Below are positions 13,385-29,078 of a stretch of 29,078 nucleotides of DNA, one piece after another. Under the pieces are notes generated by a model that did not search any database, was not told the DNA's origin, and saw only the letters and a list, made by a program, of their open reading frames with translations. A program made the translations under genes and the position numbers. The stretch's first letter is position 1, and each line of letters opens with the position of its first letter. The stretch is from Candidatus Woesearchaeota archaeon (GTDB lineage: Archaea > Nanobdellota > Nanobdellia > Pacearchaeales > GW2011-AR1): NCBI GenBank assembly GCA_964530955.1, contig CAZHCL010000012.1:1-29078 (forward strand), read 5' to 3'.

Positions 13385-13556
13385 AAGAAAGTATTTTTAT
13401 TTACCCTCTAGTAAAACGGTGAATGAAGTAATTGATTTTAGTGATGAAATTTGCTTTCCTTCTCGCATATCCAGTAAAAAAAGAAGTTCTCTGCTTTATT
13501 TTTTGCTTACAGTCAATGATACAAACGCCTTGGAAGAGATAAGCAAAAGATGCGAG

Positions 13557-14756
13557 TTATTCTAATCCTAGATTCTTCAGGACTGCTTTCTTGGTGAATG
13601 GTAGCAGGTCAGGATAGTTCTGTCCAGTGCCTAGGAAGTAAATTGGCTTCTTTGTTATATGCGAAACTGAAAGTATTGTTCCTGCTTTTTCATCCACATC
13701 TGCTTTGCTTAGAATTATGCCATCTATACCTATGGTTTCATTGAATGTTTTTGCCTGGTCTATAACATCATTTCCAGTTATGCTTTCTCCGACGAATATT
13801 TTTAGGTCTGGCTTTGATACTTTCACTATTTTTTCCATTTCTTTCAGAAGATTTGCCTTTGTGTACATTCTTCCTGCGGTGTCAATAAGAACTACTTTTA
13901 TTTTATGTGCCGAGGCGTATTTCTTTGCGTCAAAGGAGACAGAAGCAGGGTCTGCCCCGTATTCTGAAGAGATGATAGGTACTTTTATTTTGTCTGCATG
14001 GGTGTTTAGCTGTTCAATTGATGCGGCTCTGAAAGTATCTCCTGCAGCTAGGACACAGGAAATTCCTTCCTTTTTGAGCATATGTGCCAGTTTTGCTATG
14101 GATGTTGTTTTTCCAGTTCCATTTATTCCAAAAAAGATTATTGTATAAACTCCTTCATGCTTTTTTATTTGTTCTAGTAAATTTGGAGGCTCTGTAAGAA
14201 CTGAAAGTATGGCATCTTTAAGCGCCTGCAGAATTCTTGCTTCTGCTTCTATCTTTTTCATCTGCTGATTAACCAAGTCATTCGCTAGGTTTTCTTTTAT
14301 TTTATTAACTGCTTCTAGAGCAACATTGTTTTCTAGAAGAGTTATTTCAAATTCTTGGAATATTTCATCAAAATCTTCTCTTGAAAGTTTGGAAGAGGTT
14401 ATTTTTTTAATAAGTCTTGTAAAGAAATTGCCTTTTTCTTCTGTTTCTGGTTTTATTTCTTCAGGTTTTTCTTCTGGGAGAATTTCAGCTTCTTCTATAA
14501 GTTCATTAACTTCTTTTCTTGTCTCTTTTTCATCTTTTGTGAGGTTTTTTTGTTCCCTTTCAACTTCTTCTTGACTTATTACAATTTCTTTCTTTATTTT
14601 TTTAAGAGTTTCCTTGTTCTTTACAGGTTTTTCTTTCTTTTGGTCCTTGGATTTCTTTTCTTTTGTCTTTTTTTCAGCCTTTTTCTTTTCTTTCTTAGGT
14701 TTTTCCTTATCACTACCTATCCAGGAGCTTATTTTTTTCTTGAGAAAGTCGAACAT
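13557..14756 (-). CDS. ftsY: SRP receptor FtsY
   Basis: MFDFLKKK N-terminus, Lys/Glu-rich A domain, LLENNVA, GINGTGKTT, GDTFRAA, DTAGR and SKAD..EKAG. Confidence 0.96.
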   Translation of the reverse strand: MFDFLKKKISSWIGSDKEKPKKEKKKAEKKTKEKKSKDQKKEKPVKNKETLKKIKKEIVISQEEVEREQKNLTKDEKETRKEVNELIEEAEILPEEKPEEIKPETEEKGNFFTRLIKKITSSKLSREDFDEIFQEFEITLLENNVALEAVNKIKENLANDLVNQQMKKIEAEARILQALKDAILSVLTEPPNLLEQIKKHEGVYTIIFFGINGTGKTTSIAKLAHMLKKEGISCVLAAGDTFRAASIEQLNTHADKIKVPIISSEYGADPASVSFDAKKYASAHKIKVVLIDTAGRMYTKANLLKEMEKIVKVSKPDLKIFVGESITGNDVIDQAKTFNETIGIDGIILSKADVDEKAGTILSVSHITKKPIYFLGTGQNYPDLLPFTKKAVLKNLGLE

Positions 14757-17392: not shown

Positions 17393-18144
17393 TCAATTAT
17401 TCAGAGTTAAGCTTATTGGGCAATGGTCGGAGCCGAAATAATTTTTCAATATCTTAGATTCGCTGAGCTTGTTTTTTAAACTTGCACTTACAATAAGGTA
17501 ATCTATTCTCCATCCGATATTTCTTTCTCTTGCATTGTTCATATATGGCCACCAAGTGTAATTTTCTCCTTCTTTTTCAAATTCTCTAAATGTATCAATA
17601 AACCCTTCTTTAGTAAATTGTCAAATCATTCTCTTTCTTGTGGGGTGAAACTTGCATTACTCATATTTGATTTAGGGTTTTTCAAGTCAATTTCTTTGTG
17701 GGCGACATTGAAATCTGATGCAATTATTATTGGTTTTGTTTTTTCTAATTTTTTACAAAAGTCTAGAAAGTTTTTGTTAAACTTCAATTTAAAATCTAAT
17801 CTCTTTAATTCTCTGTGAGAATGAGGAAAATATACATTAATAACAAATAAATCTTCAAATTCCAATCCTATTATCCTTCCCTCATCATCGAACTCTTTAA
17901 TTCCTATGCCTTCGATAACGTTAATAGGTCTAATTTTAGAATATATTGAAACTCCACTATAACCTTTCTTTTTAGCGAATGAATGAAATGAATAATATTC
18001 TTCAAAAATCTTAGGAATATTCTCTTTTTGGGATTTGACTTCCTGAAAGCAATAAATGTCTGCGCATTCTTTTTTTAATAATTCAATAGCTCCTTTATTA
18101 GTGCATGCATTAATACCATTAACATTCCATGAGATTATTTTCAT
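17393..18144 (-). pseudogene. xth: Exodeoxyribonuclease III / AP endonuclease pseudogene
   Basis: SWNVNG, QEVK, KKGYSGV, D.EGR and DFNVAH, then TGA at 17626-17628 (expected TGG) and a 1-nt deletion in an A run (17609-17611). The shifted frame resumes GFIDTFR...YTWWPY...GWRIDY...GSDHCP. Repaired length is 250 aa. Confidence 0.92.
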
Positions 18145-18788: not shown

Positions 18789-18879
18789 AGCCTCTAGGGG
18801 GGATTGAACCCCCGACCCTTGGTTAGTTTGGGTTTTTAGACCGTACAAAACCAATGCTCTACCACTGAGCTATAGAGGC
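18789..18879 (-). tRNA. tRNA-Thr(TGT) with a 19-nt intron at 37/38 (18825-18843)
   Basis: Acceptor GCCTCTA/TAGAGGC, anticodon stem TTGGT/ACCAA, T arm GGGGG-TTCAATC-CCCCC. The intron CGGTCTAAAAACCCAAACT forms a strict BHB: exon TTTG pairs with intron CAAA, with 3-nt bulges TAC and CTA. Confidence 0.93.
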
Positions 18880-18966: not shown

Positions 18967-19037
18967 GGCCCCATAGGCTAATGGTAGACCGGATCTTTGA
19001 CGTGGATCATGCCCAAGTTCGATCCTTGGTGGGGCCA
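18967..19037 (+). tRNA. tRNA-Val(GAC)
   Basis: Acceptor GGCCCCA/TGGGGCC plus A73, anticodon arm GATCT-TTGACGT-GGATC, T arm CCAAG-TTCGATC-CTTGG. TATA-like CTTATATA lies about 25-35 nt upstream. Confidence 0.85.
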
Positions 19038-19127: not shown

Positions 19128-19658
19128 ATGAAAAATACAAACGGTGTGGTATTCGCATTGGTTGTTTCTATTATAGTTGTTAGTGTGCTTTTCTATTCTG
19201 TAGGTGCTTCAAATGAGAATGATACGATGATTGTTGAAGCCAATGTTTTTGCTAACTCTTCTTTGGGAGGGTCTAATTTATCTATTGTTAGTGTGCAGGT
19301 TCCTGATTATCTTTTCTTTGGCAATTTGACAAAGGGGCAGAAGTCTGATGAATTCCAAGTTTATATTAATAATACTGGAAATGTGGACATAAATGTCAAA
19401 CCTCAACTTACTAATGCAACTGAAGATATATTTTCATATCTTTTCTTCAGGAGGTTTAAGACAAGTAATGGAACAGCTGTTCCATTTACAAGAATAGGTA
19501 ATTTCAGCCTTAATATCACCAAGCCTGCTTCTGGTGATACTTATAATGATGAATACTTTTACGTGACTCTTGACCTTACAAATTATACCAAACAGATAAA
19601 CAAAGATATGGTGGGACACAAAGCTAATGTCAAATTCATTGCGGTTGCAAGGTATTAA
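19128..19658 (+). CDS. Secreted beta-rich surface glycoprotein (176 aa)
   Basis: Signal peptide MKNTNGVVFALVVSIIVVSVLFYSVGA, 10 N-x-S/T sequons and FGNL..G / INNTGNVDINV beta motifs. The ORF-track start at 18981 lies inside tRNA-Val and is rejected. Confidence 0.85.
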   Translation: MKNTNGVVFALVVSIIVVSVLFYSVGASNENDTMIVEANVFANSSLGGSNLSIVSVQVPDYLFFGNLTKGQKSDEFQVYINNTGNVDINVKPQLTNATEDIFSYLFFRRFKTSNGTAVPFTRIGNFSLNITKPASGDTYNDEYFYVTLDLTNYTKQINKDMVGHKANVKFIAVARY

Positions 19659-20226
19659 TTCGCTTAAATTTTATTTCTTTCTAGCTTTATTTGTAATTGT
19701 TTGCTCCGAGTTTGCTTCTTCCTTAGATGTTGGAGTCTCTCCTTCCTCAGTTGATTTTTCAGCAGTTGAAGGTGAGCAGGATTGTGAGGAAATTAACGTT
19801 TTTTCTTCTAGACTTGGCCTTTACCTGGAGCTATATGATAAATGGAATCCTAAATCGGACAATAGTAGAGATATTGAAAAATATGTTATTAATGCTTATG
19901 CTCTTAATATTTCTCTAGACTACCAGAAAAATATCAGAGTTGGGAGAAATGCTACTATTAATGTATGTTTTAGGGCTACAAAAGCAGGAAGATATAATGG
20001 TTTGTTGATAGTTGATGTGGTCAATGGAAGTGCTTCTCTGGGGGTGTGGCTCAATGCAGAGTCAAAATCTTCTACCAACAAGGGAATTACTTCATTTGCA
20101 ATTAAAGAAGTTCCAGCAGGAGTTTTACCTATTCTGCTTTTTAATTTACTTCTTTTTGGGCTTCTTTTACTACTCTTAATAAGGATGAAAAAACAAGCTC
20201 TGAGAGAGAAAAGTAGAGAGTTATAG
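19627..20226 (+). CDS. Membrane-anchored Ig-like surface protein
   Basis: Signal peptide, then GVSPSSVDF...G.YNGLLIV Ig-like pattern, then a C-terminal Leu-rich TM helix and a basic tail. Start codon uncertain (overlaps the upstream gene). Confidence 0.8.
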   Translation: MSNSLRLQGINSLKFYFFLALFVIVCSEFASSLDVGVSPSSVDFSAVEGEQDCEEINVFSSRLGLYLELYDKWNPKSDNSRDIEKYVINAYALNISLDYQKNIRVGRNATINVCFRATKAGRYNGLLIVDVVNGSASLGVWLNAESKSSTNKGITSFAIKEVPAGVLPILLFNLLLFGLLLLLLIRMKKQALREKSREL

Positions 20227-20244
20227 AATTATATTCTCTATTCA

Positions 20245-20260
20245 AAAAAGGTTTATATAT
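20245..20260 (+). promoter_or_regulatory. BRE/TATA promoter AAAAAGGTTTATATAT (copy 2)
   Basis: Ends 20 nt before the ATG at 20281, consistent with a near-leaderless transcript. Confidence 0.75.
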
Positions 20261-20280: not shown

Positions 20281-22131
20281 ATGCTTAACATGGAGGGAAA
20301 AAGAGGCCAATTAGCTCTTATTGTTATTGTTGCAATAGTGATAGTTGCAGCCGTTGTTATTTATTTTGTTTCTACTTCAAATGTTGCAAGTTCTTCTGTT
20401 CCTGCTGAATTAGCTCCAGTTTACAATTATTATCTTTCGTGCATTCAAGAGCAGGCTCAACAGGCTATAGATATTGCTGGAAGTCAGGGAGGGCACATTT
20501 ATGTAAACAGCTATTCTCCTGCAAGCGATTATTCTCCATTTTCAAGTCAGCTTAATTTTCTTGGGCTCCCCATACCTTACTGGTATTATATCACAGGCAA
20601 TGGACTTGCAAAAGAACAGGTTCCAAGCAAGACGGATATCCAGAATGATATTTCAAGATATATATCTGAAGGAATCGGTAAATGTGATTTTGAACAGTTT
20701 TATTCACAGGGATTTTCTATTTCTTTTACTAAACCTACGGTTACAACGAGTATTAGTGATGGTTCCGTAAGTGTTGATGTAATTTCAAATGTTAATGTTA
20801 CAAAAGGAACAAGTTCTGCGATAAAGAGCGAACATAAAATCGCTATAACAAGCAAACTTGGAAAGTTTTACAATATTGCATTGCAGATTTATAATAAGGA
20901 AAAGAGCGATTCTTTTCTTGAGAATTATAGTGTCGATGTTCTGAGGCTGTATGCTCCTGTTGATGGAGTTGAAATAGGATGTTCTCCTAAAATATGGAAG
21001 ACTCCTGATGTTATTAGCGCATTGAAACAAGGTTTAGTTAATAATATTGCAGCTATAAAATTCCAGAGTAGCAGTCTTTTAGGAGGGAATGCAAGCAACA
21101 AATATTTTGATGTTAATCTTCCCGTTAATGAGAATGTCAATCTTCTTTATTCTCAGAGCTGGCCTACTAAGATAGATATTTCTGGAAATGGGGTTGATAA
21201 TTCATTAATGGTTGCTGATACTGTTGGAACTCAGCCAGGTCTTGGAGTTTTAGGTTTCTGTTATGCGCCTTATCACTTCGTGTATGATATAAGCTATCCT
21301 GTTCTTGTGCAGGTTTACAACGATCAGGAAATTTTCCAGTTCCCAGTTGGAGTTGTAATCAGCAAGAATCTTCCAAGGCAGGGAATTCCTTCTGAAATAG
21401 ACGGAAATCAGAGCGTTGATTTATGCGCTTTCAAAACTCAGGATGTATCAGTTAATGTTTATGATGCGCAGTTAAAACCTGTCAATGCTGAAATAAGTTA
21501 CGGATGCTTTGACCAGAAATGTCATTTAGGAAAGACTGTTAATGGAGTTTTCAGTGGAAAGGCTCCTGCATGCGTTAATGGATATATTTATGCAGATGCA
21601 GATAATTATACTGAAGTCAAGCAGATATTTTCAAGCAATAATGAAAGTTCTGCGAATATGGTTCTTGACAAAGAGTATAATGATTTAATTAATGTCAATG
21701 TTGGTGGGCAACCACTTGATGGACAAGCAATTGTTTTGTTTACTGGGCAAAAAACTGCAAGTGCTACATTGCCTACAACTAATAATGTTCAGCTTTCTGA
21801 AGGATTATACAATATAAGTGTATATATTTATGGAAATTCAAGTTTGACTATTCCGGCAAGCACTAAAACGCAATGCGTTCAGGCTGCTCAATCAGGCATA
21901 GCAGGATTGTTTGGCGCAACAAAAGAACAATGCTATGATGTTACTTTACCTGCAACTAATATAACCTATGCACTTATAGGTGGAGGACAGTCAGAAGCAT
22001 ATATTCTTGAAAGTGATTTACAAAAAGGAAATATCACTTTGAATGTAGATAAGTTTAAAGTTCCTGCAACACTGGAAGATTTGCAATTTAATTATGAATC
22101 ATTTGACCAATCGGGAGTGGTCGTAAATTAA
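20281..22131 (+). CDS. Large class III signal peptide (type IV pilin-like N-terminus) protein, 616 aa
   Basis: KRG/QLALIVIVAIVIVAAVVIYF: basic residues, Gly at -1, then a hydrophobic helix, followed by a Cys-containing beta-rich extracellular region. Confidence 0.85.
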   Translation: MLNMEGKRGQLALIVIVAIVIVAAVVIYFVSTSNVASSSVPAELAPVYNYYLSCIQEQAQQAIDIAGSQGGHIYVNSYSPASDYSPFSSQLNFLGLPIPYWYYITGNGLAKEQVPSKTDIQNDISRYISEGIGKCDFEQFYSQGFSISFTKPTVTTSISDGSVSVDVISNVNVTKGTSSAIKSEHKIAITSKLGKFYNIALQIYNKEKSDSFLENYSVDVLRLYAPVDGVEIGCSPKIWKTPDVISALKQGLVNNIAAIKFQSSSLLGGNASNKYFDVNLPVNENVNLLYSQSWPTKIDISGNGVDNSLMVADTVGTQPGLGVLGFCYAPYHFVYDISYPVLVQVYNDQEIFQFPVGVVISKNLPRQGIPSEIDGNQSVDLCAFKTQDVSVNVYDAQLKPVNAEISYGCFDQKCHLGKTVNGVFSGKAPACVNGYIYADADNYTEVKQIFSSNNESSANMVLDKEYNDLINVNVGGQPLDGQAIVLFTGQKTASATLPTTNNVQLSEGLYNISVYIYGNSSLTIPASTKTQCVQAAQSGIAGLFGATKEQCYDVTLPATNITYALIGGGQSEAYILESDLQKGNITLNVDKFKVPATLEDLQFNYESFDQSGVVVN

Positions 22132-22132
22132 A

Positions 22133-25100
22133 ATGAAACAAACAAGAAAATTATTTGGGATGTTGCTTCTTTTTTTGGCTGGAGCTGTTTTATTTACTAG
22201 CAATGTATTGAGTGATACTAGCTTTTCAGGAGTAAGTTATGGGACGAATTATGTTAATCCTGCTGGATATCAGACTGCCTATCAGACCTATTATTCTCCA
22301 CAGGATATAAGTAATTATTGGCCAATTCTTGATCAACAGAATAATTGTCAGGCGAGACAGGATTTGATACTTCAGGTTCCTCCAGGGGGATGCCAGCCAA
22401 GTGTTGTTACGAGTGATTTGCTTCAGAGTCAAAATGTTCCTGTCTTCTGCCAGATTGATGCTTTGAAATTAAATCCTTTAATTGATATAAGCTCGATAAA
22501 TTCTATAAGTTTCACTCAGAAATATCCTGCAGGAGTTTCTGGAATAGGATTTCATCCTGCAAATGCAGCTCTTAGAACTGGGGACGCATTACTTGGTAGT
22601 CCCGTATTGAATAATATTGGATATGCTGTTGTCATATTGAAGCAAAATCCAAATCAGAGTTCCATGCCTTCCCTTATTGTGGCCAATCTTACTGGTTCGA
22701 TAACTTATGATGCTGGAAATGCTCTCGGAATAGGAAGTGCTGATTTTATTTTGAGCCCTATGGATGATCAGACATGGGCATCCCAGAAAAGCAGACAGAG
22801 TTTCTGGCAGGGTAGATATTATGTAAGACTTGATAGTGCAGATCCTCAAAATGCTCAGGTTTCAATTTATCAGGGCGATAATAAAATTACTTCAACAAAA
22901 GTTACTGCTGGAAAGACTTCTTCTCAGATATATCTTCCAGGATTTTATTGTCAGGCGAGTCTACAGGTAGAATATGATGGATTCACTACTGCTGAAAATA
23001 AGGCAAGACTTGAAATTGATGGAGACACCCTAGATGTTTATGCTGGAAGTAATATTTTGAATGGAAAATGCAGAGTAGATAGCATAACTATCGACAATGG
23101 ATTGTCAATTGGTAGTCAGGTTACTTATAATCCTGCAAGTGGAATAATCAAGGCAACAGTAACCAATGTTAATTCTGATGGGACTTACAATATTATTGAC
23201 TCAAATAGGAAATCTTATTTGAATGTTAAAATATCTCAATTAAATTCAGACTCGGCAATAAATGGTTTTGGAAATGTATCAATAAGCTGTGGTTTTTCCA
23301 ATAAAATAAGTTTGAGTAGAGAGCCACTAAAATCTAGCTCTGCTAATTCACAGCAGCCAAGTTTTGCAACATATATTTTAAGTAACTATTACTTTAGATA
23401 TAATACTGTCTATAGTTTTTGGGAATGGTCTAATGATCAGGTGAACTGGAATTCTGTGAGTTCTGAAACTATTTCTGTTCCTTCTACTATTAATAATGTT
23501 GTTTCTCAGTTGCAGTCCACTGATGGAGTAACTGGGGGCACCGCAGTAGTTAAAGCTGGAGGAAAGTTAGTTACTACAAAACAAACTCTTCAGGATAAAG
23601 TTCAAAGCGATGTCAATGCTGAAAATGCAGTTAATGATGCAATAAAATCCTATCAGGCAATTGCTGATCAGTATCCTCAGGAAAAGCAAAGTGCAGACCT
23701 TGCTTCTACAATTCCTACCTACGGAGAAACGGCATTAGGTGCTGCGGTTGATTTGGCTGATAAGTATCAAAAGTTTGCGACTGAGGCAAGTTTGATAAAC
23801 AAATTTATTCAGTTATATCCTAATTCTGCTTTAATAAATTCTTACAATTTAAGGTTGCAAGGATTTTACAGTGTTGATTCGAGTCAGGCGAGTAATCTCG
23901 TTTATATTGACAATAAATACCGAAGTATTAAGCTGGTTGATTTGGAATCTCCTGCTAAAAAGGCAGGAGCTTACTTGGTTATAGGAAATAATCCTAATTC
24001 GGTATTGCTTGAAAAGGGAAATTCTCTTGATTTGTCTGCTTCTGCTGCAAGTGCGGGAAAGGCAGCTATTCCTGCTGGAACAATAACTCTTACTTCATTA
24101 ACTGCAGATACTGCTGTAATCAGTGCTGTTTGCGCGCAGACTGTTAATGCACAGAAAGTACAATCTGGAGGTTCTGCTTCAACATATACTTTCAGGCTTG
24201 GGCAAACTCAAGCACCAGGTCAACAAGTCCAGACAACTCAGACTATTTGCGGGCAGCCTATAAAGTTAGATAGAATTGATATGGAACAACTTGCAATAAT
24301 CAAGCTTTTGCCGAATGCGAATAATGTTCAAAGTCAGGTTAATGTTTCAATTGGAATAGGAATTGAAAAAAGTGCTATTCAGTTAAGTCCTGATAAGACA
24401 AAAGAAATGATAGCAACTATTAATCAGAGCATACAAAAATGGCAGAGCATAAATAATAATATAGGAAATTTAGTTTCTGGACTTAAGGCTGCTTGCTTCG
24501 CTACTTCTGCAGTGCTTACTGCAAAGAGTTTCATCAATGGAGTGAATGGTGAAGGAATTGCGAGGCAGATGGTGATGACTGGGGATAATGGATGGAATGT
24601 TAAATGTCAACAGATGGTTGCTGCTGGTCAGTATAAAAGCGTAAATGAATGCTACAGCTCAAACAGTGCTAATATAGATTCTGATGTTGCTGTTAGGACT
24701 GCCGCTATAAATAAGATAAATACTGATATGGAACAGATAGGCAGTTGCAAAGCTCAAAACACTGGAGTATTAAATTCATTATTCGGCTCTGCAAATATGA
24801 TTGACAGAAATAAATGTGCAACAGATTATTATAATTATGTCAAATCTACCTATGGAGGTAACACTGTTAATCTTGCTGGAGCTAAAATTTCTCCAGGAGA
24901 TATAATATATTATCAAGGACAGAAAATAACTGTAAGTTCTGCAAATGTTAATCCTGACGGAACTTATAATATAGTTGGTTCAGATAAAAAAGCATATTCA
25001 AATGTTAAAGGAAGCGATTTGACTACAACCGTTAATGATATGCTAACTTTCAAGCAGGGAGCAGACTATAACTCTGGTGCTTACACTCTGGATGAATTAA

Positions 25101-28100
25101 AGAATATTGAATTAAATATTCAGAGTGGCCAAGCTGCTGGCGCTTCAGACACCATTAAGGCAAATAGTAACTCTGCTCTTAGGACAGTTTACCAGCAGAT
25201 TGGAGATAACAAGAATATTTACAATCAGGTTTTGGATTCTCAGAAACTAGCTAAGTTTGGAATTCCTGATGATTCAAGCACAGTTCTTTCAGCGCCGGGC
25301 CAGCAGACGGTTTATAAGAATGTAGTTCCAATTTCAAGTGTCAGCGGGATTACCGGATTTAATTTCAATTCTAATACTGTGGCTGTTACAAAATTTGTTG
25401 TTCCAAGCACAACGACAAGTGTGCAAGGTTCATCTGGCCCAGCAGGGAGAAATAATAACGCAGCAATTCCGGGAGGGACTTATGTTGCTGGATTGGCAAA
25501 GAGCTCCGGTCAAAATGCTTATACTATTAATGAATTATATTTAGTTGACACTTCTTCCGCTACTGCTCAGACATCTTATTCATCTTCGGGGCAAACTACT
25601 CAAATAAACACTCCTGCTTTCATAGGACAGTTTAGCGATGCATTTAAGATAAAGAACATTGTTTCACAGGATCAGATATCCTATGCGAATAATTATATTA
25701 ATCCGCAGATAAAATATTTTGAGACTGAGCCTTACAAAGGAATGCCTGCGATTGTTCCTTTCGACATTCAGAATGGATGGTATGCTGCGACTAAACAGAC
25801 TTTGCCAGCATTTGGAGGACAGGGAGCATTCGATGCTTCTGGGAAAGTTTCAAGTTTCTGGCTTTGCAATGTAGGACCTAATCATGTTAATAATTTTGAG
25901 GAAGGACTTGGAGATGATATTTGCGAGCAGATGAATATGAATACTGGTCAGGCTACAAATCAATTCCCTGGTTTGAGTGCTTCGCAAGCTCAGACTCTGG
26001 CTACAAAAGCGATAAAGGCATTAAATGATGCTTCTAATCAATATGGAAGTGGCAAAGGACCTGTTAAAATAACTGGTGTGGATGTCCCTGTTCAGAGGGG
26101 GAGTCCTGCTTTGAATATTCCTTCTGCCCAGTGTCAGGATTTCATGAGTCCAAGTGATTGCAATTTATTATTTAATGTCTGTGATCCAGTAATATGCCCA
26201 AGTTCAAGATGTGATTTGGGAGGAGCATATCCTGTTGCTAATGTTGTTCAGACGGGAATAATTGGAAGTGTAGCTTTATGCTTACCAAACTTTGGAAATC
26301 CTTCAAAGGGAGGAGTAGCTATTCCAGTTTGCCTTACTGGAATAAATGCTGGACTTGATAGTTATATTTCTGTTTTGAAGGCGGGAAGAGATTGTTTGCA
26401 AAATAGTCTTGATACTGGAAGCATGGTTGGAATTTGCAATGAATTGACTTCTATTTATACGTGCGAATTTTTCTGGAGTCAGGTTGCTCCATTTGCTAAT
26501 TTGCTTCTTCCTAAGATTATTGAATTGGCTTATACTGGAGGACAACCAAGAGGCGGAGGAGAATATATGACTGTGATTGGTGCTTGGCAAAATACAAAAA
26601 ATGCAATTGACTATTTCACTAATATGTATGCAGTAAATTCATTGACTTCATTTAAAGCAAGGTCGATAGAAGAGGCTGGTTCAACTTTCTGTAAGGCTTT
26701 TGTTTCTGCAAGTGCGCCTACCTCGATAAAAACACTGATAGAACCTGATAGTCCTCCACAGTTTAGTGCGTGGTTTAGCTCAACTCCTTACACTACTGTG
26801 ACTTTGCCTGCAACTTCACAGTATAAAGTATATTATCACATATTTGGAGGAAAGGATTCGGGAGTTTATTATAATGTTTATCTTAAGAGCAGTGCAAATA
26901 CTGGATATTATTATTCATCTCCTATACTCACTGTTGCTTCGGGATTCATAAACAGAGGGAATTATGCTGACCAGACAAAGGACTTTACTGCTCCTACAGG
27001 ATATCAGGAGCTTTGCGTCGACATAAATGGACAATCTCAATGCGGATTCAAAGAAGTTTCAACTTCATTTGCTGTAAATTATCTTTCTGATTCCTATGCA
27101 CAGAGTCAGATTAATCAGACAAATATAAATTCTGAAAGCGGTTGTGTCAGTGGAAGTGCGAATGCTGCAGGATTACTTACTAGCCCTAATCCTCAATCAG
27201 CTATACAGAATTCTTTGTTGCCTCAGGATTACAATACTGGAATTACAAGAATATGTGCTACAAGCAATCCGGGAAGTTCAACTGATCCTACAAGATATGT
27301 TGCTGTTGGAAACTGTGGAGATTCAAAAGTGATTTGCTGGCTTGATAAAAATAGCGCCAACAATGCCATAAGTCAGGCAGATGTCGGAATTAAAAATGCA
27401 ACTTTAAGTGATTTGCAGGCGATACAACAGCAGGCATTGGCACAGCAGCCGGGAATGCTTGCTAATCCTCAGGCAAGCATTGATCAGGTTAAACAGGATG
27501 TTGATACAATTGTAAACACTTATTCAACTGATACTTTGCAGAATACTCTTTCAAAGGTTACTAATGAGCTTGCTCAGATTGACAATATTTTTGGTCCTAA
27601 TTTACAAAATATTATTTTGAATTCAGATAAGGCACAGGTTCTTTACTTGAAAGCTAGATTGAAAGGTGTTCTTGCGCAGGCTTATTATAATTCTCTTCCA
27701 CAAGGGTCTGGTAATTCTGGGACCACTTCAACAAATACTAATGGTGCGGCTGGAAATTCTCAGGCAACGGGTCAGCAGAACACACAGTCTCAAATAAGTC
27801 CTCTTTACTCATTTACGCAAAGTCCGTTTGCAACAATTTACTTTAGGGATGATGGAACTGGAAATAGTTGGCAGTTTTCTATAGATAATCAGGTTACATG
27901 GACTTCTGTATCATCAACAAGCATTCCAAGTAGTATATCTAGCAGTTATTCGCAATTAATAATTGATTTAAGGAGTAAAAATTATAATGACGGAGTTTCT
28001 TATCTTCTTAACAATGGTGTGACTACTGTGCAGACTACTACAAATTCGAATACGCAGCAGACATCTTCTTCAGGAACTGGAGTAAATGGTGTTGCAATAG

Positions 28101-28111
28101 GGGCTAAATAA
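22133..28111 (+). CDS. Giant secreted Cys-rich protein, 1992 aa
   Basis: Uninterrupted 6-kb ORF starting 1 nt after the upstream stop. Signal peptide MKQTRKLFGMLLLFLAGAVLFTSNVLS, about 30 Cys, S/N/G/Q/T-rich, internal repeats and no C-terminal anchor. Confidence 0.92.
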   Translation: MKQTRKLFGMLLLFLAGAVLFTSNVLSDTSFSGVSYGTNYVNPAGYQTAYQTYYSPQDISNYWPILDQQNNCQARQDLILQVPPGGCQPSVVTSDLLQSQNVPVFCQIDALKLNPLIDISSINSISFTQKYPAGVSGIGFHPANAALRTGDALLGSPVLNNIGYAVVILKQNPNQSSMPSLIVANLTGSITYDAGNALGIGSADFILSPMDDQTWASQKSRQSFWQGRYYVRLDSADPQNAQVSIYQGDNKITSTKVTAGKTSSQIYLPGFYCQASLQVEYDGFTTAENKARLEIDGDTLDVYAGSNILNGKCRVDSITIDNGLSIGSQVTYNPASGIIKATVTNVNSDGTYNIIDSNRKSYLNVKISQLNSDSAINGFGNVSISCGFSNKISLSREPLKSSSANSQQPSFATYILSNYYFRYNTVYSFWEWSNDQVNWNSVSSETISVPSTINNVVSQLQSTDGVTGGTAVVKAGGKLVTTKQTLQDKVQSDVNAENAVNDAIKSYQAIADQYPQEKQSADLASTIPTYGETALGAAVDLADKYQKFATEASLINKFIQLYPNSALINSYNLRLQGFYSVDSSQASNLVYIDNKYRSIKLVDLESPAKKAGAYLVIGNNPNSVLLEKGNSLDLSASAASAGKAAIPAGTITLTSLTADTAVISAVCAQTVNAQKVQSGGSASTYTFRLGQTQAPGQQVQTTQTICGQPIKLDRIDMEQLAIIKLLPNANNVQSQVNVSIGIGIEKSAIQLSPDKTKEMIATINQSIQKWQSINNNIGNLVSGLKAACFATSAVLTAKSFINGVNGEGIARQMVMTGDNGWNVKCQQMVAAGQYKSVNECYSSNSANIDSDVAVRTAAINKINTDMEQIGSCKAQNTGVLNSLFGSANMIDRNKCATDYYNYVKSTYGGNTVNLAGAKISPGDIIYYQGQKITVSSANVNPDGTYNIVGSDKKAYSNVKGSDLTTTVNDMLTFKQGADYNSGAYTLDELKNIELNIQSGQAAGASDTIKANSNSALRTVYQQIGDNKNIYNQVLDSQKLAKFGIPDDSSTVLSAPGQQTVYKNVVPISSVSGITGFNFNSNTVAVTKFVVPSTTTSVQGSSGPAGRNNNAAIPGGTYVAGLAKSSGQNAYTINELYLVDTSSATAQTSYSSSGQTTQINTPAFIGQFSDAFKIKNIVSQDQISYANNYINPQIKYFETEPYKGMPAIVPFDIQNGWYAATKQTLPAFGGQGAFDASGKVSSFWLCNVGPNHVNNFEEGLGDDICEQMNMNTGQATNQFPGLSASQAQTLATKAIKALNDASNQYGSGKGPVKITGVDVPVQRGSPALNIPSAQCQDFMSPSDCNLLFNVCDPVICPSSRCDLGGAYPVANVVQTGIIGSVALCLPNFGNPSKGGVAIPVCLTGINAGLDSYISVLKAGRDCLQNSLDTGSMVGICNELTSIYTCEFFWSQVAPFANLLLPKIIELAYTGGQPRGGGEYMTVIGAWQNTKNAIDYFTNMYAVNSLTSFKARSIEEAGSTFCKAFVSASAPTSIKTLIEPDSPPQFSAWFSSTPYTTVTLPATSQYKVYYHIFGGKDSGVYYNVYLKSSANTGYYYSSPILTVASGFINRGNYADQTKDFTAPTGYQELCVDINGQSQCGFKEVSTSFAVNYLSDSYAQSQINQTNINSESGCVSGSANAAGLLTSPNPQSAIQNSLLPQDYNTGITRICATSNPGSSTDPTRYVAVGNCGDSKVICWLDKNSANNAISQADVGIKNATLSDLQAIQQQALAQQPGMLANPQASIDQVKQDVDTIVNTYSTDTLQNTLSKVTNELAQIDNIFGPNLQNIILNSDKAQVLYLKARLKGVLAQAYYNSLPQGSGNSGTTSTNTNGAAGNSQATGQQNTQSQISPLYSFTQSPFATIYFRDDGTGNSWQFSIDNQVTWTSVSSTSIPSSISSSYSQLIIDLRSKNYNDGVSYLLNNGVTTVQTTTNSNTQQTSSSGTGVNGVAIGAK

Positions 28112-28147: not shown

Positions 28148-28942
28148 TTAGTGGGAAACTGTGCCATTTACTGCTCTAACGGGAGCGTTTGTTGGATTAA
28201 CTTTTGGCTTTCTTGCTTCCAAATCTCCAAGAGTTGTCTTTCCAAATCTGTAAATAGGGCCATTCACTTGTAGGCTTGTCTGCCCACCGAAGAAGTTATA
28301 CTGTCTAGTATCTATTCTCTGCGCCAAGAAACCTGTCTCGCTTGGTGAACCGAAAGACAATTTGTCCTGAGGCAACGCATAATCTGCTCCATTTATTCTG
28401 TAAGTATTCAAAAAGTGGTCTTGGACTATGCTTGTTTTCTTACCAACTGAATTATAAGAACCTGAGCTGAGTCTTCTCGCTCCTATTCCGTCTGTTCCGT
28501 CGTTATCATAGAAAACAGAGGACTTGTTTGTAAGAACGTTTCCAACATAAGCTGTTGATTCAGGGGCAAATACTGCAGTTCCGTTTGTTTGAAGCAAGAC
28601 TGAAGCTCTTTCTTCAGGAACTAATACGAATGCAGATTCTGAATCTAGACCATTTGTATTAACAATTGTGAAGAATTTTTCATTGTCTCTGACGATGAAT
28701 GGGGCAACGACCTCATTTGTTCTTTGGTCTGCAATGAATTCAAGAGAAGTTGTTCCATTCTGGGAAATTGATGAATAGGTGTTTCTGTTTGTCGAACTGG
28801 AGACTGTGTAAGGGTCAGGCTGCTGTGCAATAACTCTTGATTTTGGAGAATTATTAAAGTGAGGAATGTAATGACTTACTGTTGAGCATCCTGCTGACAA
28901 AGCTAACAAACCTGCTAATCCAAGTGAACCTAAGTTTTTCAT
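28148..28942 (-). CDS. Putative lipoprotein (264 aa)
   Basis: MKNLGSLGLAGLLALSAG-C lipobox. The ORF-track start at 29053 lies inside the tRNA and is rejected. Confidence 0.8.
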   Translation of the reverse strand: MKNLGSLGLAGLLALSAGCSTVSHYIPHFNNSPKSRVIAQQPDPYTVSSSTNRNTYSSISQNGTTSLEFIADQRTNEVVAPFIVRDNEKFFTIVNTNGLDSESAFVLVPEERASVLLQTNGTAVFAPESTAYVGNVLTNKSSVFYDNDGTDGIGARRLSSGSYNSVGKKTSIVQDHFLNTYRINGADYALPQDKLSFGSPSETGFLAQRIDTRQYNFFGGQTSLQVNGPIYRFGKTTLGDLEARKPKVNPTNAPVRAVNGTVSH

Positions 28943-29024
28943 GATAGGATATTGATTTGTTCTAGCTTTATAAATCTTTCTTTTTGTAGTAACTTGAGAG
29001 TTAATATTAATTTGCTTAGAAATA

Positions 29025-29078
29025 TGCGGGGAACAGGATTCGAACCTGCGCAAGCACTAAGCTACGACGGCCTTAACG
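29025..29078 (-). tRNA. tRNA-Leu, partial (5' part outside the window); anticodon AAG if intronless
   Basis: Reverse complement: T arm GCAGG-TTCGAAT-CCTGT, 3' acceptor TCCCCGC plus A73, and a long variable arm AGC-TTAGT-GCT. A type II tRNA with A73 indicates Leu. Confidence 0.85.

Follow-up and report, generated by a model that had tools for sequence, protein, structure and literature searches.

In bacteria, minor pilins can recruit a secreted partner or a tip adhesin, as is the case for CofB-CofJ, TcpB-TcpF and the minor pilins acting with PilY1, and the transthyretin/CnaB-like fold is common in the surface-protein stalks and pilins of Gram-positive organisms. In archaea, the sugar-binding proteins of the Sulfolobus 'bindosome' are surface proteins with class III signal peptides that are not filament subunits, and proteins of the surface layer (S-layer) are typically glycosylated. 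Among the uncultured archaea of groundwater and sediments, Pacearchaeota and Woesearchaeota are some of the most abundant, and they are thought to be dependent on other cells; we know of no molecule that mediates their contact with a partner. Giant extracellular lytic-transglycosylase proteins have been described in the same lineages, as set out in the sections of Castelle et al. 2021 (PMC8204110) used here. In the present work we describe two adjacent genes, called A and B, on the archaeal contig CAZHCL010000012.1 of assembly GCA_964530955.1 (761 kb, 83% complete); the whole contig of 29,078 nucleotides (nt) was analysed and is called the window below. A encodes a protein of 616 amino acids (aa) that starts like a prepilin, and B encodes an exported giant of 1992 aa. 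The best explanation of our results is that A and B make up a two-component surface complex, which would be a core feature of Pacearchaeota-type archaea. The pair is moreover a strong candidate for a cell-contact apparatus, apparently in a form that lacks the cell-wall-cutting end of some relatives.

A coupled gene pair and its conserved linkage

A and B lie on the same strand, separated by a single nucleotide, and together they make up 27% of the window, which is about 1% of the genome. The end of the A open reading frame (ORF) at 22131 and the start of the B ORF at 22133 confirm the 1-nt spacing that a preliminary description of this DNA had reported. The elements of the locus are as follows.

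20245..20260, + strand: candidate archaeal promoter read from the sequence, a purine-rich stretch resembling a B recognition element (BRE), then a TATA-like TTTATATA
20281..22131, + strand: gene A, 616 aa (ORF calls and translation)
22113..22135, + strand: coupling region, with a Shine-Dalgarno-like motif GGGAGTGG within the end of A, 13-20 nt 5' of the B start, then TAA-A-ATG
22133..28111, + strand: gene B, 1992 aa (ORF calls and translation)

The purine-rich stretch and TTTATATA are placed 21-36 nt 5' of the A start, and 54 nt separate this start from the stop of the preceding ORF (20226). Judged from its letters alone, the element may act as the BRE/TATA promoter of A; with such a spacing, a leaderless or very short-leader transcript is expected.

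To assess the distribution of the pair, 401 sampled genomes of the class were searched; 349 of them have A-like proteins and 90 the B core, B being single copy in each. Of the 87 genomes having both, about 80 show the B match at 3-6 kb downstream of that of A, with contig and strand in common; this tally comes from a hand comparison of the A and B match tables, and its exceptions fall at contig ends. Five or six unpublished genomes (G243, G244, G322, G333, G360, G396) are included in the genome tallies, and none of them is among the fetched loci; no individual statement made here depends on them. For synteny, 20 loci were retrieved, of which 18 contain the B family. In each of these 18, B comes straight after A, with a 4-nt overlap or a 1-nt gap, and the same arrangement was found in five further genomes by adjacent NCBI locus tags. 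The adjacency of A and B is far beyond chance. The preliminary description had made its proposal depend on a linkage of the two genes in relatives, and this linkage is indeed conserved.

More than 2128 homologs of A, of about 615 aa, were collected, the best 120 being 49-71% identical to it. For B, 702 homologs of 1100-3500 aa were obtained at 36-68% identity, and an exhaustive search with the B core matched 1056 cluster representatives, 911 of them at E <= 1e-30. The homologs of both proteins carry the source names Pacearchaeota or Nanoarchaeota, and the two families appear to be restricted to Pace-/Woesearchaeota-type archaea.

In the retrieved loci, rpl44e, rps3ae and GINS are often found upstream of the pair and TFB downstream, and the remaining genes of the window are archaeal housekeeping genes (SRP54, FtsY, GINS51, ribosomal protein S3Ae, RIO kinase). 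No conserved third gene follows B, the downstream neighbour varying among relatives. In some other orders, a protein of about 245 aa with one N-terminal membrane helix is encoded after B on the same strand (13471-14211 in locus L020, after a 3-nt gap; 5768-6499 in L021, with a 4-nt overlap; 13520-14269 in L022). This protein may be a lineage-specific third component, and it is absent from this window.

Predicted properties of the two proteins

Protein A starts with MLNMEGKRG followed by QLALIVIVAIVIVAAVVIYFV, that is with 21 hydrophobic residues after MLNMEGKRGQ, and has no further hydrophobic segment; it has a single membrane helix. Its AlphaFold model (mean predicted local distance difference test score (pLDDT) 78) begins with a helix (residues 7-33), which a linker of low confidence joins to an alpha/beta domain (45-360) and then to beta-sandwiches (385-600). 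All of its 10 Cys are invariant among homologs. Its regions are listed here.

20281..20373, + strand: A residues 1-31, short basic leader, putative prepilin-peptidase site KRG/Q (G9/Q10) and 21-residue hydrophobic helix
20413..21360, + strand: A residues 45-360, conserved alpha/beta ectodomain without known fold (model and fold search)
21433..22080, + strand: A residues 385-600, tandem beta-sandwich domains, the first (385-465) transthyretin / CarboxypepD_reg / CnaB-like

This N-terminus has the layout of a class III signal, with a basic leader, a [KR]-[GA] site, Q/A/S and about 20 hydrophobic residues. The homologs begin with [KR][KR]GQ and a hydrophobic run (83-120 homologs compared), and among 83 homologs G9 and Q10 reach a conservation of at least 90%. 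The class III signal layout attributed to A in the preliminary description is thus supported. The genome also holds the prepilin peptidase, assembly ATPases and TadC-type genes that were looked for on its advice: one A24 prepilin peptidase, two T2SSE-type ATPases and two TadC/T2SSF-type genes. The presence of the A24 peptidase makes processing of A possible, and A is probably cut by it between G9 and Q10. A filament cluster on contig C5 of the same genome has canonical pilin starts of the K-K-G-L-S type. A second cluster, on contig C6 (30563-42973), encodes a T2SSE-type ATPase of 752 aa and, at 36447-41895, about ten small ORFs whose [KR][GA][QE] starts resemble those of prepilins; the gene of the A24 peptidase (42110-42973) belongs to it as well. 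This cluster may represent a multi-pilin filament or an assembly system of the bindosome type.

The first sandwich of A gave fold matches at Z 10.7-9.0, with a root-mean-square deviation (rmsd) of about 2 Å over 75-81 residues, and it superposes on a domain of SlaB (8qox_B; Z 9.0, rmsd 2.1 Å, 81 residues), the fold being a very common one. The only match of the alpha/beta domain, to a gp25-like 'tail lysozyme' (2ia7, Z 6.6), was too weak to use. In the ESM Atlas, A found relatives without names, plus weak CarboxypepD_reg-type structural neighbours.

The N-terminal part of A is also found outside the pair. Its first 215 residues or so recur in the same genome as two stand-alone paralogs of 253 and 268 aa (contig C1; hhalign 99%), which flank other large Cys-rich secreted proteins. 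In two distant lineages, an A homolog overlaps by 4 nt a different giant, of 1680 or 1520 aa, which starts with Fn3/Ig-like domains and is not matched by the B-family profile; in these lineages without the B family, the match of the A-family profile ends at about position 450-510. Given the paralogs and this loss of the profile match, we view the N-terminal module of A as a probable generic anchor or adaptor and the C-terminal half as the probable partner-specific part. The two paralogs belong to a second surface cluster (locus L028, contig C1, 94475-104575), where the Cys-rich proteins that they flank measure 1169 and 510 aa, a signal peptide being seen on the 510-aa one only. This cluster continues with a lipoprotein-like ORF and then a 786-aa protein with a weak Big_13 match.

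It had been proposed that A is a minor pilin or adaptor and that B is its non-covalently held tip adhesin or invasion module. A pilus-tip complex of this kind, with A as a large minor pilin in the tip of a type IV filament and B as the secreted adhesin that it carries, would be in keeping with the conserved class III signal and the beta-rich C-terminal domains of A, as well as with the peptidase, the two ATPases, the platform genes and the clustered prepilin-like ORFs of contig C6. However, type IV filament genes adjoin the pair neither in the window nor in any of the 18 loci, and in the model of A the membrane helix ends in a break and a flexible linker, whereas a pilin would have one uninterrupted helix packed against its head domain. 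With TIGR02537, the N-terminal model of archaellins and pilins, A scored 10.8 bits, below the cut-off of 20 (E 0.27), and no pilin is present in the fold-match lists for A, which were filled by one domain. Moreover, a prepilin peptidase was found in 387 of the 401 genomes, and this near-universal presence does not discriminate between explanations. Incorporation of A at a pilus tip is not supported, and we regard a pilus-tip complex as unlikely.

Protein B has a Sec-type signal at about residues 1-27 and 32 Cys, where about 30 had been announced. No membrane anchor is seen: the highest 19-residue Kyte-Doolittle window outside the signal peptide is 1.44, and a C-terminal hydrophobic segment is absent here and present in 1 of 216 homologs, as expected from the initial view of B as a Sec-exported protein without an anchor. 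Its conservation is blocky, residues 55-315, 721-840 and 1185-1760 being conserved and residues 320-480, 840-1160 and 1761-1992 variable.

22295..23077, + strand: B residues 55-315, conserved N-terminal domain containing 5 Cys; in windows, about 0.5-0.7 identical to 119 homologs
23108..23236, + strand: B residues about 326-368, copy 1 of a small beta module; gap fraction 0.87 (about 90% of homologs are without this stretch)
24293..24652, + strand: B residues 721-840, second conserved block (GIEK..., ACFAT...ARQ...GW), moderately hydrophobic at 777-795
24887..25015, + strand: B residues about 919-961, copy 2 of the small beta module; gap fraction 0.90
25685..27412, + strand: B residues 1185-1760, conserved family core with 19 Cys (conservation profile and model)
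26129..26743, + strand: B residues 1333-1537, most conserved stretch (CDPVxCPxSRC, YxCEFFWxQxAP, RGGGEY), with three moderately hydrophobic helices
27413..28111, + strand: B residues 1761-1992, short variable tail of 232 aa, in which a helical segment and a low-complexity linker accompany a small beta module repeating about 418-455

The internal organisation of B was in part anticipated by the preliminary description. The duplicated modules that it mentioned are visible by eye as two short pairs, namely residues 326-368 and 919-961 (about 43 residues, sharing the motif VN-DGTYNI...K-Y-NVK) and about 418-455 and 1900-1940, the latter in the tail, but a BLAST self-comparison reported none at E<=0.01. 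Its TPR-like helical segments were not borne out, a profile search giving TPR proteins at a non-significant E of 0.17-0.59 only. In the model of the core (pLDDT 69), a beta domain is accompanied by a helical part rich in Cys, by an Ig-like sandwich and by a small alpha/beta domain; the beta domain, the sandwich and the small alpha/beta domain are modelled with confidence. Ten of the 19 Cys of the core are located in residues 1333-1537. Foldseek and VIA-align returned generic Ig-like sandwiches only for the core model (best Z 7.6), a comparison with the viral structures of BFVD gave nothing informative, and the ESM Atlas gave no usable named match. A sub-threshold Pfam hit of B to LemA (E 0.2, 11.9 bits for a cut-off of 26.2) was discounted.

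Neither A nor B had a match above the cut-offs in Pfam, NCBIfam and PHROGs, and none was found among PDB sequences in single-sequence and profile searches. In these searches B thus shows no confident match to an S-layer or hydrolase family, in line with what had been anticipated. The statement that neither protein belongs to a characterised family is true for curated libraries, but the family of the giant is already in the literature, as far as the sections of PMC8204110 used here show.

B differs from the other large proteins of the genome in its N-glycosylation sites. It contains 7 N-x-S/T sequons, whereas 31.5 +/- 4.8 would be expected for a protein of its composition; in 2000 shuffles the number was never as low, and the median observed/expected ratio in the B family is 0.54. 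By contrast, six other large proteins of the genome (906-3039 aa) have 51-210 sequons each, 1.8-2.6 times the expectation, and the genome encodes AglB/STT3. A has 10 sequons, about 1.5 times the expectation. Since B is depleted while other giants are enriched and AglB is present, B would be selectively kept glycan-free. A low-glycan surface would suit a protein that oligomerises, refolds or makes tight contacts with other proteins. Besides B, four giants of 2208-3039 aa, with 118-210 sequons each and an enrichment of about twofold, are encoded at 15184-31538 on contig C11, 135-7358 on C7 and 29394-36020 on C9; those starting at C11 15184 and C9 29394 begin with an MVHK...YGPY motif. Going by their sequons, these four giants may be better candidates than B for an S-layer or a glycocalyx.

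The sequon depletion bears directly on a second explanation, a two-component S-layer in which A would be a SlaB-like membrane stalk and B a SlaA-like canopy over the whole cell. An anchor and a large anchorless secreted protein encoded in one operon, in single copy, near-universally in the order and in housekeeping surroundings, would suit this explanation, as would the superposition of the A sandwich on SlaB. This superposition nevertheless concerns a very common fold, and the depletion of B argues against the role of a glycosylated canopy. In addition, the tails of relatives bear enzymes, ankyrin and LRR domains, and the core of B keeps 50-73% identity across genera, an unusual degree of conservation for an S-layer protein. 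An S-layer made of A and B is thus quite improbable.

The tails of B homologs and the favoured reading

The B homologs differ in what they carry beyond the core. Their tails measure 58-1890 aa in 236 homologs (median 398), and a Pfam scan of 40 long-tailed homologs found SLT in 3, Amidase_3 in 1, Phage_lysozyme2 in 1, GH3 in 1, DUF1615 in 3, trypsin-like peptidases in 2, ankyrin in 1, LRR in 1 and DUF4347 in 2. Such variable, domain-bearing tails on one scaffold suggest that B is a constant scaffold with an exchangeable outer end. As the tails of relatives are peptidoglycan hydrolases, proteases or protein-binding repeats, they point to contact with, and remodelling of, the envelope of another cell, often a bacterial one. 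Here the tail offers a small beta module only, so that this copy would bind rather than cut, and cutting of the bacterial cell wall would not be the core function of the B family.

Our favoured reading, to which we give a probability of about one half, is that A is a pilin-signal membrane stalk which holds B as a contact scaffold towards partner cells, the source archaeon being tiny and probably partner-dependent. A would be exported via its class III (prepilin-type) signal, probably trimmed at the G9/Q10 site, and would be retained in the membrane by its N-terminal hydrophobic helix, from which it would display the alpha/beta domain and the beta-sandwich 'stalk' domains. B would be synthesised in step with A by translational coupling, exported by Sec, folded with many disulfides and left unglycosylated, and it would be held non-covalently by A. 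It would then form a long scaffold, whose conserved core would do the common job and whose variable C-terminal tail would face the partner cell. The structure of the genes, their signals, conservation and synteny, the domain layout, the variable tails and the sequon depletion were observed directly; the cleavage of A, the A-B interaction, the surface retention of B and the role in partner contact we infer. Its occurrence in one copy and its retention in nearly all genomes of the order make the pair a prime candidate for the contact role. It would combine three separable elements, namely an anchor module of generic type with a pilin signal, a giant scaffold that stays constant and an outer tail that can be exchanged, and this layout, together with the avoidance of glycosylation in B, leads to concrete hypotheses that are open to testing.

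Several observations weigh against our reading. The B copy of this window has no enzyme or binding domain recognisable by Pfam, so that the idea of a partner cell depends on a minority of relatives. SLT and Amidase_3 were not found anywhere in this 83%-complete genome, and a precomputed Pfam domain exists in just 3 of 120 close B homologs. Since most close relatives are without recognised domains, the common function must reside in the scaffold, and its most conserved part (residues 1333-1537) was modelled at a pLDDT below 50 and is left without explanation by our reading. It might be speculated that these residues are a membrane-active module which inserts into, or opens, the partner envelope after engagement of the tail, an idea that we hold to be rather improbable. 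If true, A-B would be an archaeal device for contact-dependent penetration and the basis of the cytoplasmic or nutrient bridges between DPANN archaea and their partners, and the avoidance of glycosylation would be explained by a need to refold or oligomerise at the membrane.

The exchangeable tails could also be seen as those of a released polymorphic effector, B being freed as a carrier of lytic or toxic heads and A being a factor for its export, folding or release. The hydrolase-bearing variable C-terminal tails on a constant scaffold would agree with this, and a membrane protein of roughly 600 aa strictly coupled to a giant is formally like two-partner secretion pairs. However, A has one membrane helix only and no transporter-like domain, B is not followed by a gene resembling an immunity gene (its neighbour is convergent here and differs among relatives), and this copy of B contains no effector domain, which makes a released effector very doubtful. 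A mobile-element or viral origin of the pair was rejected in view of its conserved housekeeping neighbours, its single copy and its vertical-looking inheritance.

The surroundings of the pair in the window contain further genes. Two small exported-protein ORFs are located just 5' of A on the + strand. The first (19128-19658) encodes a 176-aa secreted protein, provided that its start falls after tRNA-Val, and the second (19627-20226) a protein of 199 aa in which a signal peptide is combined with a membrane helix at the C-terminus. Both are unmatched in 20 related loci (E<1e-5) and therefore lie outside the conserved pair. The tRNA-Val gene (18967-19037, + strand) overlaps an ORF call starting at 18981, so that the true start of this ORF must be later. 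In some relatives a small ribbon-helix-helix (RHH) or winged-helix ORF stands upstream of A; it is absent here, where the gap is of 54 nt and a tblastn search of the genome was empty. A tRNA-Tyr gene at 18789-18879 (- strand) is 91 nt long and, because of this length, probably contains an intron. An exonuclease III-type gene at 17393-18144 (- strand) appears split, with a 172-aa ORF corresponding to positions 1-172 of 225 of Pfam Exo_endo_phos and a C-terminal SDHCP-type end on a separate 49-aa downstream ORF; a frameshift or a pseudogene is possible. After B, a convergent gene (28148-29053, - strand) lies 36 nt beyond the B end, and its product, a lipoprotein-like protein, has a lipobox-like LSAGC motif. 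A lipoprotein-like gene is found at the corresponding place in one relative (locus L008, 7083-7880), the downstream neighbour being overall not conserved.

Comparison with described systems

When compared with CdiB/CdiA-type pairs, A-B has in common with them a membrane partner of roughly 600 aa beside a giant that combines a constant body with exchangeable C-terminal modules, a likeness of design and not of homology. It differs from them in lacking an Omp85-type transporter, an outer membrane and an immunity gene, and the heads of the B family are wall hydrolases or binding repeats, not intracellular toxins. The CofB-CofJ, TcpB-TcpF and PilY1 complexes resemble A-B in associating a pilin-signal protein with extra beta-rich domains and a Sec-exported adhesion partner. 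However, their genes are inside pilus operons and those of A-B are not, and B is several times larger; none of these complexes is among the fold matches of A, whose lists one domain filled.

The SlaA/SlaB S-layer of Sulfolobales (PDB 8qox) likewise associates a beta-sandwich membrane stalk with a large anchorless secreted partner, the two being co-encoded. In contrast, A would be anchored N-terminally by its class III signal and not by a C-terminal helix, and the gene order is reversed. No sequence similarity to A or B was found in the searches of PDB sequences, and the fold search, which covered the B core model, gave no relationship of B to SlaA or SlaB. The depletion of sequons in B and the enzyme heads of its relatives also set the two systems apart. 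The bindosome proteins share with A a large extracellular protein, a prepilin-type signal that would be cut by a PibD-type peptidase and the expected retention by an N-terminal hydrophobic helix; A differs from them in that it has no solute-binding domain (Pfam) and is coupled to a giant partner.

Lastly, B can be set beside the fam00969-type giants of PMC8204110, in so far as the sections used here describe them. These sections mention neither a coupled 616-aa partner nor a conserved Cys-rich core nor a depletion of sequons, B being likened to fam00969 by description, and the B copy of this window differs from these giants in having no SLT or any other enzyme domain. The likeness lies in the same lineages, in a size class of up to about 3000 aa, in export, and in the presence of SLT in 3 of the 40 scanned B homologs, with other peptidoglycan hydrolases on the same scaffold. 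With its domain-bearing tails, the B family would thus fit the giant lytic-transglycosylase proteins described in these sections of Castelle et al. 2021 (PMC8204110).

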